Source: a virus
Taxonomy: Duplodnaviria; Caudoviricetes
DNA length: 36,326 bases
Virus record (IMG/VR): IMGVR_UViG_3300030372_000758
Location: 1 to 36,326 of that record
Direction: 5' to 3' (one strand)
The translations under genes and the position numbers were made by a program. A model generated the notes under the pieces. It made no database searches. It was not told the DNA's origin and was given only the letters and a program-made list of their open reading frames with translations. Shown piece by piece: positions 11,758 through 34,184 of this stretch (position 1 is the stretch's first letter; each line of letters opens with the position of its first letter).

Positions 11758-12206
11758 TTTATAATCCTCGCAAATCTATAAAAGTCTGATCCATCTGGAC
11801 CATAACCCTTCATTAAACCTTCTTCTTTCAATCCTAAAAATTTTGCAAACTTTAATGCAACTAAACAATCGGCTTTAACTGATGTTTGTAATCTTCTAAT
11901 AAAATTATTTTTTAACATCATGTCAGTTCTTTGCTTAATAACCTTTGCAAATGTTATTGGATAGTTATTTATTTCTTTTGTAGCCAAGACCCACCCCTCG
12001 GCACAGCCATCCCAGAGGGGAAAGATCCCTCCAGCCGCTATAGGTTTGTTATTCAATAACCCTGTAAACGACATTCCAACTTCTTTTAGATAATAAGCAT
12101 ATTTTCTATGCTCTGGTTTCATTTCTAATAATTCACTATTTAAACCTTGATCTAAAATATAATGTGCGTGTTCGTTTTCAAAAGGTACAAATTTTATATT
12201 AGACAC
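11754..12206 (-). CDS. GNAT-fold virion assembly protein (T7 gp13-like position)
   Basis: ALKFAKFLGLKEEG GNAT-like motif; probable GTG start at 12206 with GGAG upstream, rather than 12236. Confidence 0.7.
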   Translation of the reverse strand: MSNIKFVPFENEHAHYILDQGLNSELLEMKPEHRKYAYYLKEVGMSFTGLLNNKPIAAGGIFPLWDGCAEGWVLATKEINNYPITFAKVIKQRTDMMLKNNFIRRLQTSVKADCLVALKFAKFLGLKEEGLMKGYGPDGSDFYRFARIIK

Positions 12207-26771: not shown

Positions 26772-27154
26772 TTCTTCCCCTCACAAATTAAATCGTGCCG
26801 TTCCTGGAGTAATTGCATCACTTGCAACCAACCATCCGGTAGCATATACATCTCCTCCGATCTCCAAGGTGTTAGTTGCTTAATTCTAAAAGATGTAATA
26901 CTCTCGCCATCCACCTTATAAAAAACCAGGAAACTTGGCAGACCAGCTAATTCGGCTAATTTCTTTGTAGTTGTCGTTGCCTTCCAAGGTTGTCCCACAT
27001 CAAAAGCAGTTTCAGCTAGATACAAAGGAGATTTACATTTTAAACAAATACCACAGGCATCAATATCCAGCATTCCCAATTTTTCGGGAAGTGATCTGTG
27101 CCAGAGTGAATAAGCTGAAAACTTTACATCCTTATAATAAATATCTCTAGCCAA
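26768..27154 (-). CDS. Putative PD-(D/E)XK-fold nuclease-like protein
   Basis: LDID..CxxC..PLYLAET; TTG start with GGAG RBS. Confidence 0.55.
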   Translation of the reverse strand: MARDIYYKDVKFSAYSLWHRSLPEKLGMLDIDACGICLKCKSPLYLAETAFDVGQPWKATTTTKKLAELAGLPSFLVFYKVDGESITSFRIKQLTPWRSEEMYMLPDGWLQVMQLLQERHDLICEGKK

Positions 27155-28202: not shown

Positions 28203-28384
28203 GATTTGCTCTATATGGATTTAATGCCATATCGTCAACAAATACGCATATCAATAATGTGGATATTTAGGTATAATCTATATATTTATACAACTATATA
28301 TACACTTTTTTGCTTATAATTTTTTTTATACAGTAACTATTGACAATTATATACCTATTGATTTATAGTTGCCAATATGACAAT
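28203..28384. promoter_or_regulatory. Divergent cro/cI promoter-operator region
   Basis: Leftward TTGACG-17-TATAGA; rightward TTGACA-18-TATAGT; operator-like 28223..28239 and 28368..28384. Confidence 0.8.
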
Positions 28385-29084
28385 AACAAAATCAAATATA
28401 CGAATCTTAAATAATACAAATAAGGAACACAAAGATACAACTATGGCAATGCTAAAAAAACTTCTTGATGACAGAGGAATGAACCAAGCTGAACTTGCCA
28501 AACAATTAAAAAGAGACAAAACTACAGTTAATCGTTGGGCAAAAAATAGCCGTGAAATTACTTGGGATAATGCTGAAAAAATTGCTAAAGTTATTGGTTG
28601 CCATCCAGTAGAAATTTATAAACCTCACAACTACGTTATTTTAAGAAATAGATGTACTTGGAATGGTATTGTGCATGTTATAGATAAAGAAGATCAATAC
28701 GCAGTAGACGTGCCTTATGAATATTACCATCCCAATATAAAAGCTATTCTAATGCAATGTCCAGGAGTTCCAACAGACGGTGAGATTTGGTTATTTGATA
28801 TTCCTAAAGTTAAAACTTTTGCTAAAAATTCTATCGGTAAAATTTGCTACATAGAGCCATCTAAACTTGCAATAAAAGAATTAAAAAAAATGAAAAAAGA
28901 TCCATGTGTACCTATTGTTGCATTATTAAAAGGTAATGGTGATGGTACTTTAGCGTTAGTAAATAGTTATACTAATGAACCAATTAACGAACATTGCCAT
29001 AAAGTACCTACAGAATTTTTAGGTATAGTTTCTCCAGTTAAAGCTAGATACGACCCAGAGTTGTTAAATAATATAAACAAATAA
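28377..29084 (+). CDS. cI: CI-like XRE repressor
   Basis: LKKLLDDRGMNQAELAKQLKRDKTTVNRW HTH plus a C-terminal domain with no obvious S24 catalytic motif. Confidence 0.8.
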   Translation: MTITKSNIRILNNTNKEHKDTTMAMLKKLLDDRGMNQAELAKQLKRDKTTVNRWAKNSREITWDNAEKIAKVIGCHPVEIYKPHNYVILRNRCTWNGIVHVIDKEDQYAVDVPYEYYHPNIKAILMQCPGVPTDGEIWLFDIPKVKTFAKNSIGKICYIEPSKLAIKELKKMKKDPCVPIVALLKGNGDGTLALVNSYTNEPINEHCHKVPTEFLGIVSPVKARYDPELLNNINK

Positions 29085-29092
29085 GTATATAA

Positions 29093-29146
29093 GTTGCCAA
29101 ATATACATATTCCGTGTTGACAAAGTTCCTATAATGTTCATAAAAG
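29093..29146 (+). promoter_or_regulatory. Promoter with alphaproteobacterial LexA (SOS) box
   Basis: TTGACA at 29117..29122; GTTC-CTATAAT-GTTC (GTTC-N7-GTTC) at 29125..29139; operator-like 29093..29109. Confidence 0.75.
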
Positions 29147-29164
29147 AATCTATTGATTTGCTTT

Positions 29165-30097
29165 ATGGAAAAAGACGAATTTTTAGACAATATAAAAGAA
29201 TTACCTAAATGGGTTGAGCTTTACGGTATCAACCATCATTCCCCCTCTCAAATAAATTCCAATGATGATATTTGGAGTTACAAATATTTATACCTATCCC
29301 AAGAAGAACGAAGAGAACTACCCATAAATTCTAAAATGTTTTCTGGAGTGTGCCTTGGCGATATGGCGCAATTACAATTTGGCAATTATGTTTGGGAATA
29401 TGTTAAAGGAAAAGGTTTAACTAGAAAAGAAATTCCACCGCAAAGAAAAGTTTTTGAAAAAATTATAGAAAAATTTAATTTGTATGATCCCGCAGATGAC
29501 AAAGACAGAGAGCAACACGATATAAATAGACAAGGTTTAGCTTTAACATTTCAACAATTAAAATATGGATTAAGAGAAATTAAATTAAAAGCTCCAATAG
29601 ATTGTGAGAGATCCGTTAGTTTAGAATTACCTAATTGCTTATTACCTTGTATCGGCAGAATAGATATAGAAGATGAAAATAATTTTGTTGAAATTAAAAC
29701 AAAATGGCGAAAGAAAAACAGACCAAGAAAAGATGGTACATCTAATTATTCTGTACCAAAAATAGATGAAGGTTATTTAGGTTGGCAAGACCATATTCTG
29801 CAAGTTGCTTTCTATTGGTTAGCTTGCAATAAAAAAAAGAAACCTCACTTATTAGTAATTAATGAAAAAGATTATAATGTTTTTACTCCAGATAATTGCG
29901 ATGATTTAAAACCAGAAAATTTAGAACTTCAATTAAATAAAATGGCAATGGTTGCCAAACGCAGAGAAAGAGTAATGGAAAACCATGCTGGTAAAACTAC
30001 TTGGTTCCAAGATATTCCATGTGATTTCGACCACTTCTTTTGGAACGGTTTAGGAGATCACAAACAAGCAGCTATGAAACTGTGGGGTTTAGTATGA
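29165..30097 (+). CDS. PD-(D/E)XK exonuclease (RecE/Cas4-like recombination nuclease)
   Basis: HHSPSQ, GRIDIE..FVEIKTK, LQVAFY; ATG at 29165 (ORF track gives TTG at 29153). Confidence 0.85.
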   Translation: MEKDEFLDNIKELPKWVELYGINHHSPSQINSNDDIWSYKYLYLSQEERRELPINSKMFSGVCLGDMAQLQFGNYVWEYVKGKGLTRKEIPPQRKVFEKIIEKFNLYDPADDKDREQHDINRQGLALTFQQLKYGLREIKLKAPIDCERSVSLELPNCLLPCIGRIDIEDENNFVEIKTKWRKKNRPRKDGTSNYSVPKIDEGYLGWQDHILQVAFYWLACNKKKKPHLLVINEKDYNVFTPDNCDDLKPENLELQLNKMAMVAKRRERVMENHAGKTTWFQDIPCDFDHFFWNGLGDHKQAAMKLWGLV

Positions 30098-30348
30098 GGG
30101 AAGATAACTCAATGATTAATCCTCAATCTTGGTTGCTGAAAAAAGAATTAGTAAAGAAAAAAAACAATTCAAGAGGTATGCTCCTTATATTGATTGTTTT
30201 TCTTATCTCCCTCATAGTTATAAGTCATCTCTTTACTAATAACGGTAGCCAGATGAGTTCAGCCGAGAGGTTTAACAAGGGTTTTATAACAGGCAGTTAT
30301 CTTTCCCCTTTTTCATACATCTGGCTATCAGAAAGTTATTATGGGTAA
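30094..30348 (+). CDS. Small membrane protein ORF overlapping a structured RNA
   Basis: ATGA coupling at 30094; TM segment MLLILIVFLISLIVISHLF; the 3' half coincides with the RNA structure, so coding status is uncertain. Confidence 0.45.
   Translation: MREDNSMINPQSWLLKKELVKKKNNSRGMLLILIVFLISLIVISHLFTNNGSQMSSAERFNKGFITGSYLSPFSYIWLSESYYG
30244..30329 (+). ncRNA. C4/CI-like three-way-junction antisense RNA candidate
   Basis: P1 GGTAGCCAGATG/CATCTGGCTATC; P2 GTTCAGCC-GAGA-GGTTTAAC; P3 AAGGG..ATAAC-AGGCA-GTTAT..CCCTT; single-stranded parts complementary to 30073..30109. Confidence 0.7.
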
Positions 30349-30925
30349 AGTTATTAATATCAATAAAATAGAAAACGAAATAACAAAGTTAAAAGCTAAT
30401 GGCGGTATGTGGGAGATTGGTCCAGGTAAGTTTGCCATTAAACATTTAGAATTAGAAAAATTAGCCAACACTTATAATATTGAAACTAATGTTGAAATTA
30501 AACATTGTAATTTAGAAAAAGGTTGTGCAGTAGTAAAAGCTGTTGCAACATTTAACGGTAAAAGTTTTTATACACTTGGAGAAGTTTCCCCTCTTAATAA
30601 TGATTTTATATTTCCAATAGCTGTAGCAGAGAAAAGAGCTGCGGATCGAGCTATTCTTAAAGCTCTTGGTATTCATGGTAATATTTATAGTTCAGAAGAA
30701 TTATCAAATATAAAAAATAATAATAATCAAAATACTGGCATAGACTTAAACCAAGAAACAATCATTTTAGAAAGAATTAAAAACGCAAGTCATCAAGCAA
30801 ACTTGGAACAAATTAAAAGTCAAAATAAAGATTTCTTAACAGAGCTAAAGAAACAAGATTTAAAAAGGTACGAAAAATTAAAACAAGCCTTTTTAAATAG
30901 AAACCAGCAATTCATAGGAGGATAA
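30341..30925 (+). CDS. Putative single-strand annealing protein (Rad52/Sak-like)
   Basis: AVVKAVA...GE...AEKRAADRAILKALG..YSSEE; between the exonuclease and the SSB-like gene. Confidence 0.6.
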   Translation: MGKVININKIENEITKLKANGGMWEIGPGKFAIKHLELEKLANTYNIETNVEIKHCNLEKGCAVVKAVATFNGKSFYTLGEVSPLNNDFIFPIAVAEKRAADRAILKALGIHGNIYSSEELSNIKNNNNQNTGIDLNQETIILERIKNASHQANLEQIKSQNKDFLTELKKQDLKRYEKLKQAFLNRNQQFIGG

Positions 30926-30933
30926 TATAATAT

Positions 30934-31218
30934 ATGGCTGATTTTCAAAAACCAAAAGACCCAAACTGGATGTGTACCTTTTCATTGAAAAGAAACGCAG
31001 ATAAAAAACCTGGCGATAATAAACCAGATTTAGTTTTGGTGGATAGTGAAAAGATAAATCAAAAATCTGGGAAACCTTATCGTAAGAACTTTACGATTAA
31101 TGGTACCTGGTGCGAGGCATCTTGTTATATCCAAGAAAATAAGGATCTAAAAATTACCATTAAGAAAACTGGTGGAGATAAACCAGCTTCTAATGATGGA
31201 TTTAACGATCAATTTTAG
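30934..31218 (+). CDS. SSB-like protein
   Basis: KKPGDNKPD, beta-rich, acidic/aromatic tail DGFNDQF; RBS AGGAGG. Confidence 0.55.
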   Translation: MADFQKPKDPNWMCTFSLKRNADKKPGDNKPDLVLVDSEKINQKSGKPYRKNFTINGTWCEASCYIQENKDLKITIKKTGGDKPASNDGFNDQF

Positions 31219-31227
31219 GGGAAACAA

Positions 31228-31443
31228 ATGCAATATGGCTTAACTGAAAAGCAACTAAAACTTTTTAAGTTTATTAAAAGCTATATTTCTAAAAAAAACA
31301 TATCGCCATCTTACGATGAAATGAAGGTGGCGATAGGTGCAAAATCCAAATGTGGAATTTATGCTAGAATTAAACAATTAGAGGAAAGAGGATGGATAAA
31401 AAAACTACCAGGAAAAGCGAGAAGTATCCAAATAATCCGATAG
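31228..31443 (+). CDS. LexA DNA-binding-domain-only protein
   Basis: LTEKQ..LFKFIKSYI....SPSYDEM..AIG.KSK......LEERGWI...PGKARSI. Confidence 0.9.
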   Translation: MQYGLTEKQLKLFKFIKSYISKKNISPSYDEMKVAIGAKSKCGIYARIKQLEERGWIKKLPGKARSIQIIR

Positions 31444-31727
31444 ATCTTTCTCCAGATGCTAATACTAACGAGTTAATATCTCGAATATTAGATAGGGATA
31501 AAGAAGGTATGGATAAGTTTAAAATTACCATGCAAGACAAAATGTTGAAGGATCCCACCAATGCAAAGTTCTGGTTGCAAGAAGGATTAGAAGAAGGTAT
31601 AGATTTATGTAGATATTTAATAAATTCTATTCATTCTTACAATCTCCTCAACGAAAAATATAAGAAACTTCTCAAAGAAAACAAAGAATTAAAAGAACAT
31701 AATAAAATGATGTATGAGCATCCATAA
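31392..31727 (+). CDS. Hypothetical protein, possibly all-alpha NTP pyrophosphatase-like
   Basis: R..EG..KF..T...WLQEGLEEGID..RYL acidic motif. Confidence 0.5.
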   Translation: MDKKTTRKSEKYPNNPIDLSPDANTNELISRILDRDKEGMDKFKITMQDKMLKDPTNAKFWLQEGLEEGIDLCRYLINSIHSYNLLNEKYKKLLKENKELKEHNKMMYEHP

Positions 31728-31980
31728 GAAATTTGAAAAATTCTGGTCTGGTTCTGTTTCATTTACAGCTACAGAAACCTTTAAAGATCTGGATACTGCG
31801 GTTAAAGCTAGTGTGCCAAGTACCGCAGCTAAAATAGTAATTGATGAAAAAACTATCAGTTACGATTTCAATAGGATGAAGGAGGTTAGTAATCCAAATG
31901 ATAACACACTACCAACACCTGGGAAAAGAAATCCAGGAGAAAGAAAAGGAGAGAAAAAAGTTGAACAGACAAATAAATAA
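31714..31980 (+). CDS. Hypothetical protein
   Basis: 88-aa ORF in operon. Confidence 0.6.
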   Translation: MSIHKKFEKFWSGSVSFTATETFKDLDTAVKASVPSTAAKIVIDEKTISYDFNRMKEVSNPNDNTLPTPGKRNPGERKGEKKVEQTNK

Positions 31981-32095
31981 GTTGTTAAAAGACGATACTG
32001 TTCATCCAGCTATTGCTGCTCTTTCTAAACAAAGTCATTCAAAGCTGATTGATATAATTACTTTGAAAGACGAACAAAGTAAATTACCAGGTTAA
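31898..32095 (+). CDS. Hypothetical coiled-coil protein
   Basis: 65 aa, GGAGG upstream. Confidence 0.55.
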   Translation: MITHYQHLGKEIQEKEKERKKLNRQINKLLKDDTVHPAIAALSKQSHSKLIDIITLKDEQSKLPG

Positions 32096-32163
32096 ACTGG
32101 TACTTTATAACCATTCTAAACTAATTGAATATTAGTAATACCCTTCCTACGCCTAAATAAAGA

Positions 32164-32214
32164 AAAGCCAATTTGTCAATATAGGTTGACAGATAAGCAA
32201 CAGATTGATATTGA
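32164..32214 (+). promoter_or_regulatory. Integrase promoter with two operator-like sites
   Basis: TTGACA(32186)-17-TATTGA; AAAGCCAATTTGTCAAT and GTTGACAGATAAGCAAC. Confidence 0.7.
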
Positions 32215-32223
32215 TTTGGCTTA

Positions 32224-33399
32224 ATGAAATTTTGGTTAAATACAATTAAAGATAAAAATAAAAAGCCAATCTATTTACAAGTTCAAGGCATCAAAGATGA
32301 TGGTACTAAATTTGAACAATCAAGATTTGAACTGAACCAAAGACGTAGAGCCAAAGAATATATTAAAGATTTAAAAGAAGAGGATTATAAATTACCAGAG
32401 GTTGAGGTTACATTTGATGATGCTTTTCCAAAATATTATAAATCTTTAAAAAACAATGACGACAACCAAGAAGATACAAATAACAGATATATTTCATTAT
32501 TAAAGGCTCATATCCAGCCGTATATTGATGAAAAGTACCTATTTGAGTACAAGGCAAGCACCTTTAAAGACACCCTCTTAAAACGTATTAGAAGCAGTAA
32601 AAAGACTAAATGGAAGAAATTTAACGACATTTATCAATTAACTAGACAAAATGAAGTAATAGATAAAAAGACTGTCAAAGATGCGGTGGCATCCTTTAAA
32701 AGATTCATAGTTTGGTGTGATGATAATGGCTGGAAGATAGATCTTAAAATATTAAGACACAGATTTAGTAAAGCTAAAACTACAACCAAGGTTAAGAAGA
32801 TAGTTAAATGGGTTCCTAAAAAGGAAAATGTTTTAACTCTAATAAATAGTGAAAAAAATATTTGTGATAAAACTTTATATAGAGCATCGGCAGAAATAGG
32901 AGGAAGATTAAATGAGATGTTGGCTATCTGTTATGATGATGTTTATGAAGATAAAGAGCTTGGAGTATGGGTTGTTCATATCAGACACTCTTTGGGTCCA
33001 GATAATTCCTTTAGACCCGACTACTTAAAAACCGGTAGTTCTGAAAGAAAAATAGAAATTAGCGAAACATTATTAAAGTATCTTCAGTCTTGGATAAAGA
33101 TACAAATAGCACCTAAAACTCATCAAAGAAAATACAGAAGATTATTTCCATACAATAAAAAATATGCAGCCGATAAAGTTAAAGCTGCCGCTAAAAGATT
33201 AAATATAGAATGGCTTGGTGGCTTTGCACCATTTAGAAAATTCAGTAGTTCCCTTTTAAAATCTCAAAATGTTTTTACAGAAGAACAATTAGATTTAAGA
33301 TTTGGTAATACTGAAGAGGTAAGAAAGAAACATTATTATAATGATCTGAATTTGAACAAAGAAAAGAAAACTGCCACAATTAACAAACTACTAACATAA
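32224..33399 (+). CDS. int: Tyrosine integrase
   Basis: GGRLNEMLAI (R), LKT..SER (K), APFRK (R), FGN, KHY (Y); next to a tRNA-derived attP. Confidence 0.9.
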   Translation: MKFWLNTIKDKNKKPIYLQVQGIKDDGTKFEQSRFELNQRRRAKEYIKDLKEEDYKLPEVEVTFDDAFPKYYKSLKNNDDNQEDTNNRYISLLKAHIQPYIDEKYLFEYKASTFKDTLLKRIRSSKKTKWKKFNDIYQLTRQNEVIDKKTVKDAVASFKRFIVWCDDNGWKIDLKILRHRFSKAKTTTKVKKIVKWVPKKENVLTLINSEKNICDKTLYRASAEIGGRLNEMLAICYDDVYEDKELGVWVVHIRHSLGPDNSFRPDYLKTGSSERKIEISETLLKYLQSWIKIQIAPKTHQRKYRRLFPYNKKYAADKVKAAAKRLNIEWLGGFAPFRKFSSSLLKSQNVFTEEQLDLRFGNTEEVRKKHYYNDLNLNKEKKTATINKLLT

Positions 33400-33407
33400 G
33401 GATAAAC

Positions 33408-33839
33408 ATGGATGCGCTACACCATAAAGCTAGGATTGCAAAGTTTCTCTTTGCCTTTAGGTTCCTAGATAAAGTTATAGATAATGGCAATGGTTCACAA
33501 TCAAGATTGCCAAAACATAAAAACCAAACAGTTCATGCCAAAGCACAAGGTAAAACTTTTCAGCAAGTACAAAAACAAGAAAAGGGTCAAAACGGAATAC
33601 CAGCACATGATTTGTTTTTATTATTAAAAAAGGAAGGTTACGATATTAACTTAATTTTTAATAGTAATCCAGAAGAGGTATTGGCAAAGATAGATAAGAG
33701 ATACCACAAAAAAGTATTAGAGAATTTTGCTAGAGTAGATAAAAATATAGAACAAGAAAGGAAACTCCAAGCAAAATATAGACCAATGCTCCCAAAGTTA
33801 GAACGGGAGCTTGCATATCAATCAACATATAAAGGATAA
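33408..33839 (+). CDS. XRE-type HTH protein
   Basis: GKTFQQVQKQEKGQNGI resembles the TFQQVQKYE.G.NRI recognition helix. Confidence 0.75.
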   Translation: MDALHHKARIAKFLFAFRFLDKVIDNGNGSQSRLPKHKNQTVHAKAQGKTFQQVQKQEKGQNGIPAHDLFLLLKKEGYDINLIFNSNPEEVLAKIDKRYHKKVLENFARVDKNIEQERKLQAKYRPMLPKLERELAYQSTYKG

Positions 33840-33851
33840 TATGTTTAAAAC

Positions 33852-33877
33852 AAAGGTGGGGAGAAATCCCCACTTTT
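33852..33877 (+). terminator. Rho-independent terminator
   Basis: GTGGGGA-GAAA-TCCCCAC-TTTT. Confidence 0.8.
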
Positions 33878-33948
33878 AAAAAGATGCTTGAAACTTTAAT
33901 AATTATTGAGATTGTTTTTATAGCGATTTATTTCATTCAAAATTAATT

Positions 33949-34184
33949 CACACTTGAAAACACACTTACCTTTTTAGAAAAGGTAGATTAATGGTGCGCC
34001 CTGAAGGATTCGAACCTTCGACCTACGGTTTAGAAAACCAATCCTAATTTCTTTTGGAAGTATTGTCTATCAATAATAACAACTATGATTTGTAAAAAAC
34101 GGGTTGACATAAATCCATATAAATAACCCTTATAAAATAATGAAGTGTCAGATAGAAACATCATTGACACTTGAAGTTACACTT
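33949..34184. mobile_element. attP region with arm-type repeats
   Basis: NACACTT at 33949, 33961, 34166, 34178 (pairs 12 bp apart) and inverted at 34143, flanking the tRNA-like core. Confidence 0.8.
33992..34039 (-). other. attP core: 3' half of tRNA-Arg(UCU)
   Basis: GGT-TTTCTAA-ACCGT-AGGTC-GAAGG-TTCGAAT-CCTTC-AGGGCGC-A-CCA; D arm and 5' acceptor strand absent. Confidence 0.9.

Follow-up and report, generated by a model that had tools for sequence, protein, structure and literature searches.

The DNA analysed here (the window) is a 36.3-kb virus record whose portal protein shares 56–57% identity with the portals of HTVC010P-type Pelagibacter phages, and it encodes a repressor, a cro-like gene and an integrase. 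From its kinship with HTVC010P-type phages, the host of this phage is likely SAR11. Integrase-bearing HTVC010P-type phages are described as integrating at SAR11 tRNA genes in the available part of PMC8477408, and an integrase was found in 8/8 long relatives of the window. A phage repressor gene (28377..29084, + strand; PHROG 3/8/4, E 3e-12) heads a run of genes on the same strand, in which a putative nuclease (29165..30097, +), 26–29% identical to the ‘putative nuclease’ of HTVC010P-type pelagiphages, ends with a TGA stop codon that overlaps the ATG of a small membrane ORF of 84 codons (30094..30348, +). This ORF encodes a basic stretch and a hydrophobic segment, then runs through the RNA fold described below and stops 5 nt into the next gene. 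The next gene (30341..30925, +) encodes a protein of 194 aa that is likely a Rad52/Sak-type single-strand annealing protein, judging from weak matches of its fold with those of RAD52, Sak and Mgm101 (E 0.02–0.05), which ranked under three dsRBD-type matches; a weak match to a phage ‘recombination protein’ was also obtained, and sequence and Pfam searches gave the protein no name. Farther along lie a small phage protein of 94 aa (30934..31218, +) that is possibly SSB-like, a lead only, with DUF736 as nearest named cluster at 0.88, under the reliable range, a LexA DNA-binding-domain protein (31228..31443, +; PF01726, E 1e-13) and, further downstream on the same strand, a tyrosine-type integrase (32224..33399, +; PHROG 1, E 5e-11). 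The element studied here belongs to the early operon of an HTVC010P-like phage that carries an integrase. Beyond the integrase, RNA contigs share 35–50 nt with positions 33988–34039 and continue into other, apparently tRNA-like sequence, and this stretch is likely the attP core. A GC-rich hairpin at 33856–33873, after the last + strand gene, is terminator-like on the − strand.

A structured RNA inside a small ORF

A sequence-only reading of the window had described a three-way junction at 30244..30329 (+), and folding confirmed its 12-bp P1, its P2 capped by a GNRA loop (GAGA in the window) and its P3 with a U-rich internal loop; the strings and coordinates given in that reading are all as written. 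What it overlooked is that the fold lies inside the small ORF and not beside it, with the ribosome-binding region of the annealing gene directly 3′ of P1. The 86 nt fold at −30.4 kcal/mol (z −4.92; equalled by 0/200 shuffles) and are the most stable segment of that length when 28300–34000 is scanned in 10-nt steps.

Related loci were collected by protein searches and one pattern search, which retrieved many contigs twice. The start of the annealing gene was present in 247 loci, 8 of which were too short; the remainder represent 84 distinct upstream regions, and the element was found in 84/84. Twelve more distant loci brought the set to 93 distinct contexts, 38 clusters and 56 cores, and one locus (L297), in which an inserted gene separates the element from the annealing gene, was kept apart. 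The elements fall into four classes: class A, to which the window belongs, and class B are three-way junctions of 86 nt and 84–87 nt, respectively, and classes C and D are hairpins without P2, of 66–72 nt and 46–53 nt. A loose pattern returned 119 loci, mostly chance matches; 100 of them were screened, with model R2 only, which left L309 and L395 as true members and led to the rejection of L342, and none of the pattern matches outside the gene context scored with model R1. Cultured phages gave no nucleotide match, and the three cultured pelagiphages HTVC010P, HTVC028P and Hodr gave no match with either element model. In HTVC010P the nuclease gene runs directly into the gene behind it, the two overlapping without an intervening small ORF; HTVC028P has a small hydrophobic ORF at the same place, in which no such fold was seen.

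Across 43 junction cores, 92% of cells pair, compared with 33–42% in slid controls, and 17/29 pairs change on both sides. One-sided changes all involve G–U (93/93), hence an RNA on the + strand is favoured. The apical loop GCAGY is present in 56/56 distinct cores (GCAGU at 30293–97 in the window) and stays unchanged while the scaffold shrinks from 86 to ∼46 nt; the idea that it mimics a tRNA-Cys anticodon was dropped because the loop flanks vary. The 3′ core of P1 lies 17–30 nt ahead of the next start in 93/93 loci. Judged by these comparisons of related loci, the junction is a conserved, covarying structured RNA.

The sequence-only reading had also tied the RNA to translation of the small membrane ORF, and this is borne out by an open frame and a stop–start overlap: the ORF is open through the element in 93/93 distinct relatives, and in 93/93 its stop codon lies between −10 and +10 nt relative to the start that follows. 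In its sequence arrangement, the small ORF matches one whose translation is linked to that of the gene behind it. Its GCAG motif falls in frame 0 in 63 cases, in frame 1 in 25 and in frame 2 in 5, so that conservation extends to the nucleotides of the RNA and to this coupling but not to the C-terminal peptide. Because the frames differ among relatives, the idea of a ribosome-arrest peptide was discarded. The small ORF product gave no family match of note, and its Atlas matches to YfhO-type clusters were judged to be generic hydrophobic look-alikes. In class C (L217, L220, L153 and L197) the hydrophobic segment of the small ORF ends in A-x-A, presumably resembling a signal-peptidase site, and in classes C and D (L217, L220, L153 and L291–L302) a second small hydrophobic ORF with a WHIYHTILA motif lies between the nuclease and the element-bearing ORF.

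Helix P0, its C-rich loop and RNA contigs

Co-folding exposed a further helix of 11 bp, P0, which had been overlooked in the earlier reading and joins 30147..30157 to 30230..30240 (both +). At least 9 of its 11 pairs are present in 89/93 loci, with two-sided changes at 8/11 positions, and at least 10 pairs form in 34/38 representatives, compared with 17.4 expected from synonymous shuffles. When the same best-partner search was applied to all, true partners reached 11/11 pairs in 33/38 and cross-class partners in 0. RNAalifold recovered P0 in class B (19/19 at all 11 pairs) and missed it on the mixed A + B and the class D alignments, in which MAFFT misaligned the strands; the predicted probability of P0 exceeds 0.5 in 26/38. 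The loop that P0 closes measures 62–86 nt in classes A, B and D, and the whole element is ∼200 nt, larger than first reported.

Two relatives bear on what is kept in this region. In L297 a gene of ∼190 codons (1863–2508), whose start we take to be GIY-YIG-like, separates the hairpin from the annealing gene as an insertion with stop–start overlaps at both ends, and the coupled start that immediately follows the hairpin is now its own. In L309 (∼1100–1290) the small ORF lacks the usual hydrophobic codons and its frame is shifted; the two strands of P0 are nevertheless kept, as are the C-rich motif, the hairpin and the coupling, and the hairpin itself now codes for a hydrophobic stretch. Thus coupling is retained in both loci, across a gene insertion and a deletion.

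The P0 loop carries C-rich, anti-Shine-Dalgarno-like motifs (30179..30212, +), namely UGCUCCUU at 30179–86 and UCUCCCU at 30206–12, which we take to resemble the tail of 16S rRNA. A C-rich hexamer occurs in 37/38 representatives compared with 1.0 expected from codon usage, and TCCCT alone in 24/38 compared with 0.44, counts that are to be read with the motif set having been picked post hoc, after viewing the data, and with the sequences being related. This arm has no specific partner among the downstream ribosome-binding site, the ORF start and a shared phage target: partner-specific covariation was absent against its own downstream ribosome-binding site (p 0.33), no partner-specific signal was obtained against the ORF start (p 0.82, n=86), and no common phage target was found across 9 genomes. 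The ribosome-binding site of a PAPS-reductase-like gene (26772–26790, −) is the second-best target of the C-rich arm in the window; the same site stands before the replication initiator in G003 and G005 and ranks first there, and it was not seen in other classes.

Upstream of P0, a GYUGYU site (30132..30137, +) is wobble-complementary to the invariant apical loop, a possible long-range contact. GYUGY is found in 23/23 class A, 43/49 class B, 0/11 class C and 3/10 class D loci, 4–20 nt before P0; in classes A and B (66/72) it would allow pairing with the apical loop. The site uses the rare codon CTG in 22/38 representatives compared with 1.5 expected; this signal rests mostly on one synonymous position, and a local hairpin in class B can explain it. 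When the apical and internal loops were searched against the whole locus, the GYUGYU site was never ranked first.

Twelve runs hold part of 29950–30550, and seven RNA runs were examined. In 6/7 of these marine RNA runs, contigs, which by themselves give neither strand nor ends, start within 30147–30184 and extend into the fold: pieces of X1 run from 30168 (adapter at that end, depth 17) to 30294, and contigs cover 30184–30338 in X3, 30169–30325 in both X5 and X6, 30163–30316 in X9 and 30147–30294 in X10. Among the matches listed, X2 contributed a piece at 30030–30213, and the contigs of X6, X9 and X10 are the sole ones in 28900–31500. The deepest contig of X1 in the region (depth 32) is 30883–31220 and spans almost exactly the 94-aa SSB-like gene. 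Conservation alone fails to explain the clustering of starts, because in the relative L208, which X5, X6 and X9 resemble, only 38/290 qualifying read starts fall in 30147–30184; the rough post hoc odds of the clustering are 0.002, or ∼0.05 if X5, X6 and X9 are one campaign. The clustering weakly hints at a stable RNA of ∼160 nt, for which 30168..30329 (+; X1, X3, X5, X6, X9 and X10) is a candidate fragment whose ends and strand are inferred. Neither a sigma-70 promoter nor an intrinsic terminator was found at its ends. The species of ∼85 nt that the sequence-only reading expected is not shown by these contigs, which begin ∼60–100 nt upstream of P1, in libraries that may miss such a short RNA.

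Comparison with known phage RNAs

That reading had likened the junction to the C4/CI antisense RNAs and proposed that its exposed strands bind the start of the small ORF (30092..30109, +). In the window, the 3′ side of the junction (30295–30306 and 30313–30318) indeed pairs with 18 contiguous bases there, with one G–U and no bulge in the 12-nt part for which one bulge had been described. This match (−20.3) is the best on the + strand of the window, with a lead of just 0.5 kcal over an unrelated site at 12013, and the same bases are also the top + strand match of the arm at 30203–30216. A cognate advantage of the pair was seen overall (p 0.003, 60 pairs; three loci without an assigned start were left out) and in class A (p 0.012, n=16), but the predicted loop–target covariation vanished without class A (p 0.32, n=44) and was absent in class B (p 0.93, n=31). 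Energies of −15 kcal/mol or better were reached by 6/60 distinct pairs, the ORF start region was first-ranked for the 3′ side in 4/38, including the unrelated class C locus L222, and no conserved target position was found across the 38 representatives. In the close relative L004 the ‘antisense’ strand has changed, with P3 kept and the target unchanged, and co-folding of the 86-nt core with the target gave no net pairing once its own fold was counted. Hence the complementarity stands as an 18-nt match in the window but is not conserved as a target beyond the subclade, and it is best read as lineage-specific. A supposed weaker copy of the target at 30405–30417 proved to be a top match for the upstream arm (30198–30220) and not for the junction loops.

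Membership in the C4 family was likewise not recovered: RF01695 gave 0 matches at E≤10 in the genome, none of 4227 Rfam families matched the window at E≤1 or six relatives at E≤0.5, and a narrow Rfam scan returned chance-level matches only. We compared C4 features with the available portions of PMC5320573, PMC8198154 and PMC2864571 (table, supplement). The C4 RNA of phages P1 and P7 resembles the element of classes A and B: both form a three-stem junction, are about equally large, lie in an operon of a temperate phage that includes a small ORF, and carry pyrimidine-rich unpaired strands on the 3′ side; here, however, P2 can be absent (classes C and D) and the fold lies in the 3′ half of the ORF. 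As far as the available part of PMC5320573 describes it, C4 is ∼77 nt, is processed by RNase P at the P1 base, starts with GGW, and takes its specificity from variable a′/b′ loops. In contrast, the unpaired strands of the present element are mostly conserved, GGT stands at the P1 start in the window and in 21/93 loci overall, and the two-target layout was not found, the downstream copy matching the arm instead. Of the C4 hallmarks compared, the three-stem junction was recovered, in classes A and B, and GGT at the P1 start, where RNase P would cut, is seen in part of the loci. Of the earlier reading as a whole, a conserved structured RNA tied to translation of the small ORF remains, with a weak hint of a stable small RNA, and the C4 identity and the named pairing do not.

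The CI RNA of satellite phage P4 is a stable RNA processed from the transcript under control, which holds complementary sites (PMC4825925, in the part available). The present element is similar in offering a candidate small RNA from a regulated transcript with complementary sites, but it has no conserved pair of flanking targets, and P0, its sole covarying long-range pairing, can form in cis. From the same part of PMC4825925, IsrK/orf45/anrP of prophage Gifsy-1 is an RNA that serves as both message and small RNA, adopts alternative folds and carries a small ORF, the translation of which is linked to that of the following gene. Such coupling, as a sequence arrangement, is seen here too; IsrK, however, is a 5′ leader ending at a terminator, whereas the element lies mid-operon at the 3′ end of an ORF and has no Rfam match. 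In mifM–yidC2, hok/mok and lambda cIII, translating ribosomes open a downstream start hidden in structure. These systems resemble the element in having a small membrane ORF ahead of a structured start, but here no arrest peptide is possible, as the 3′ half is read in three frames, and the switch seems to reside in the RNA alone. The element is a real, apparently uncatalogued structured RNA that would work like coupled-ORF and dual-RNA controls. No description of it was found in the literature searched, including the available part of PMC12753301, and an unnamed listing in the supplement of PMC10690425 is possible. That IMG/VR survey, in the part accessible, screened intergenic DNA only, and screens of this kind would tend to miss an element hidden in coding sequence.

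Possible modes of action

The explanation we lean towards, with somewhat less than even confidence, is that the RNA written into the small ORF acts as a gate in cis, coupling translation of the likely recombination gene to that of the small ORF. Sequence comparison establishes P0, P1, P2, P3, the open frame, the stop–start overlap, the C-rich motifs and the adjacency of P1 to the ribosome-binding site, and the gate is suggested by features common to all members, namely the coupling, P1 beside the ribosome-binding site, the C-rich motifs and a helix that would cage them. A ribosome crossing the small ORF would melt P0 and P1 and restart at the overlapping AUG. Without translation, the pyrimidine-rich arm may fold onto the downstream Shine-Dalgarno or AUG region, and it would likewise cover them if the P0 5′ strand were occupied or cut away; a message left untranslated might be cleaved within the loop of P0 and then shortened as far as P1, so that the ∼160-nt piece remains. 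Such a gate is supported because the frame is open and coupled in 93/93 loci even though all three reading frames are used across the same RNA sequence, because the inserted gene of L297 holds the coupled start directly behind the hairpin, because in L309 P0, the C-rich motif, the hairpin and the coupling outlast the hydrophobic codons and the frame, and because P1 keeps its distance from the next start while P0 covaries. Predictions made with the P0 5′ strand omitted also favour it, since the downstream Shine-Dalgarno is then paired to the arm in 30/38; with P0 formed it is more open in 26/38 and less open in 4/38, with an openness of 0.61 compared with 0.35 without P0, a difference that is partly an artefact because the model forbids pseudoknots. 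Against the gate stand the lack of partner-specific covariation between the arm and the downstream ribosome-binding site, an arm pairing of 0.60 that exceeds the 0.50 of synonymous shuffles only slightly, the retention of UCUCCCU in the window's class though its own Shine-Dalgarno is weak, the failure of RNAalifold to find P0 on the mixed and class D alignments, and the invariant GCAGY loop, which the gate leaves unexplained.

The same helix might instead serve in trans, an unlikely but serious possibility: the ∼160-nt piece would be an antisense RNA with a logic like that of CI or IsrK, using strands other than those first proposed, whose freed P0 3′ strand, GCAGY loop or C-rich arm binds the nascent operon message and gives lineage-specific feedback or immunity. 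The contigs begin within the loop of P0, past its 5′ strand and past the GYUGYU site as well; as the candidate RNA lacks the P0 5′ strand, its lineage-specific P0 3′ strand would be left unpaired and could act in trans. Moreover, the P0 strands vary from class to class, with full pairing never reached between members of different classes, co-folding gave net binding in 37/37 tested cases (−1.4 to −16.3 kcal/mol; ∼−17 through the arm in the window), and the CI RNA of P4 binds sites of the precursor from which it derives, as given in the accessible part of PMC4825925. Cis pairing, however, explains the same covariation and is favoured at a distance of 72 nt, the arm shows neither a partner-specific signal at the ORF start nor a common phage target, GYUGY is missing from class C, and the ends of the candidate RNA are inferred only. 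A more specific form, to which we give still less credence, is that temperate SAR11 podophages cut a ∼160-nt RNA from within the coding sequence of a membrane protein and that its freed 11-nt P0 strand shuts the operon from recombination to integrase; if so, this lineage-specific strand, by invading its counterpart site in new transcripts, would amount to a second, RNA-based immunity unrelated in sequence to C4 and CI.

The invariance of GCAGY on a shrinking scaffold, and a P1 end adjoining the ribosome-binding site, would suit a translational operator in which a protein on GCAGY and the U-rich internal loop (the annealing protein, the small SSB-like protein or a host factor) blocks that site. 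T4 gene 43 and E. coli thrS have protein-bound operators of this kind. We consider this doubtful, because P0, the C-rich motifs and the open frame would be left unexplained and a different gene stands behind the hairpin in L297. Slightly more doubtful still is an element of mRNA processing or stability only, a nuclease site or barrier that separates the lifetimes of the nuclease and recombination messages; long helices with internal loops just ahead of a gene start, and contigs ending near the 3′ end of P1, agree with it, yet it gives no reason for the anti-Shine-Dalgarno-like motifs, the covariation of P0 or the strict stop–start coupling. The original model, a C4-like RNA of ∼85 nt whose junction and P3 strands bind the small ORF start, is highly improbable: the top-ranked 18-nt match, the 4/38 first ranks with one in class C and the partner signal in class A speak for it, but they are outweighed by the few strong pairs, the absence of signal outside class A and of net binding by the folded core, the scarcity of GGT at the P1 start and the missing C4 model match.

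For temperate SAR11 phages, the pelagiphage literature in its available parts yielded no description of early-gene control beyond the repressor. Whichever way it acts, the element is a clean case in which RNA structure and stop–start coupling outlast the reading frame of the peptide. SAR11 are the most abundant bacteria of the ocean, and the element offers a concrete, testable control element that is conserved across a phage clade of likely SAR11 viruses.
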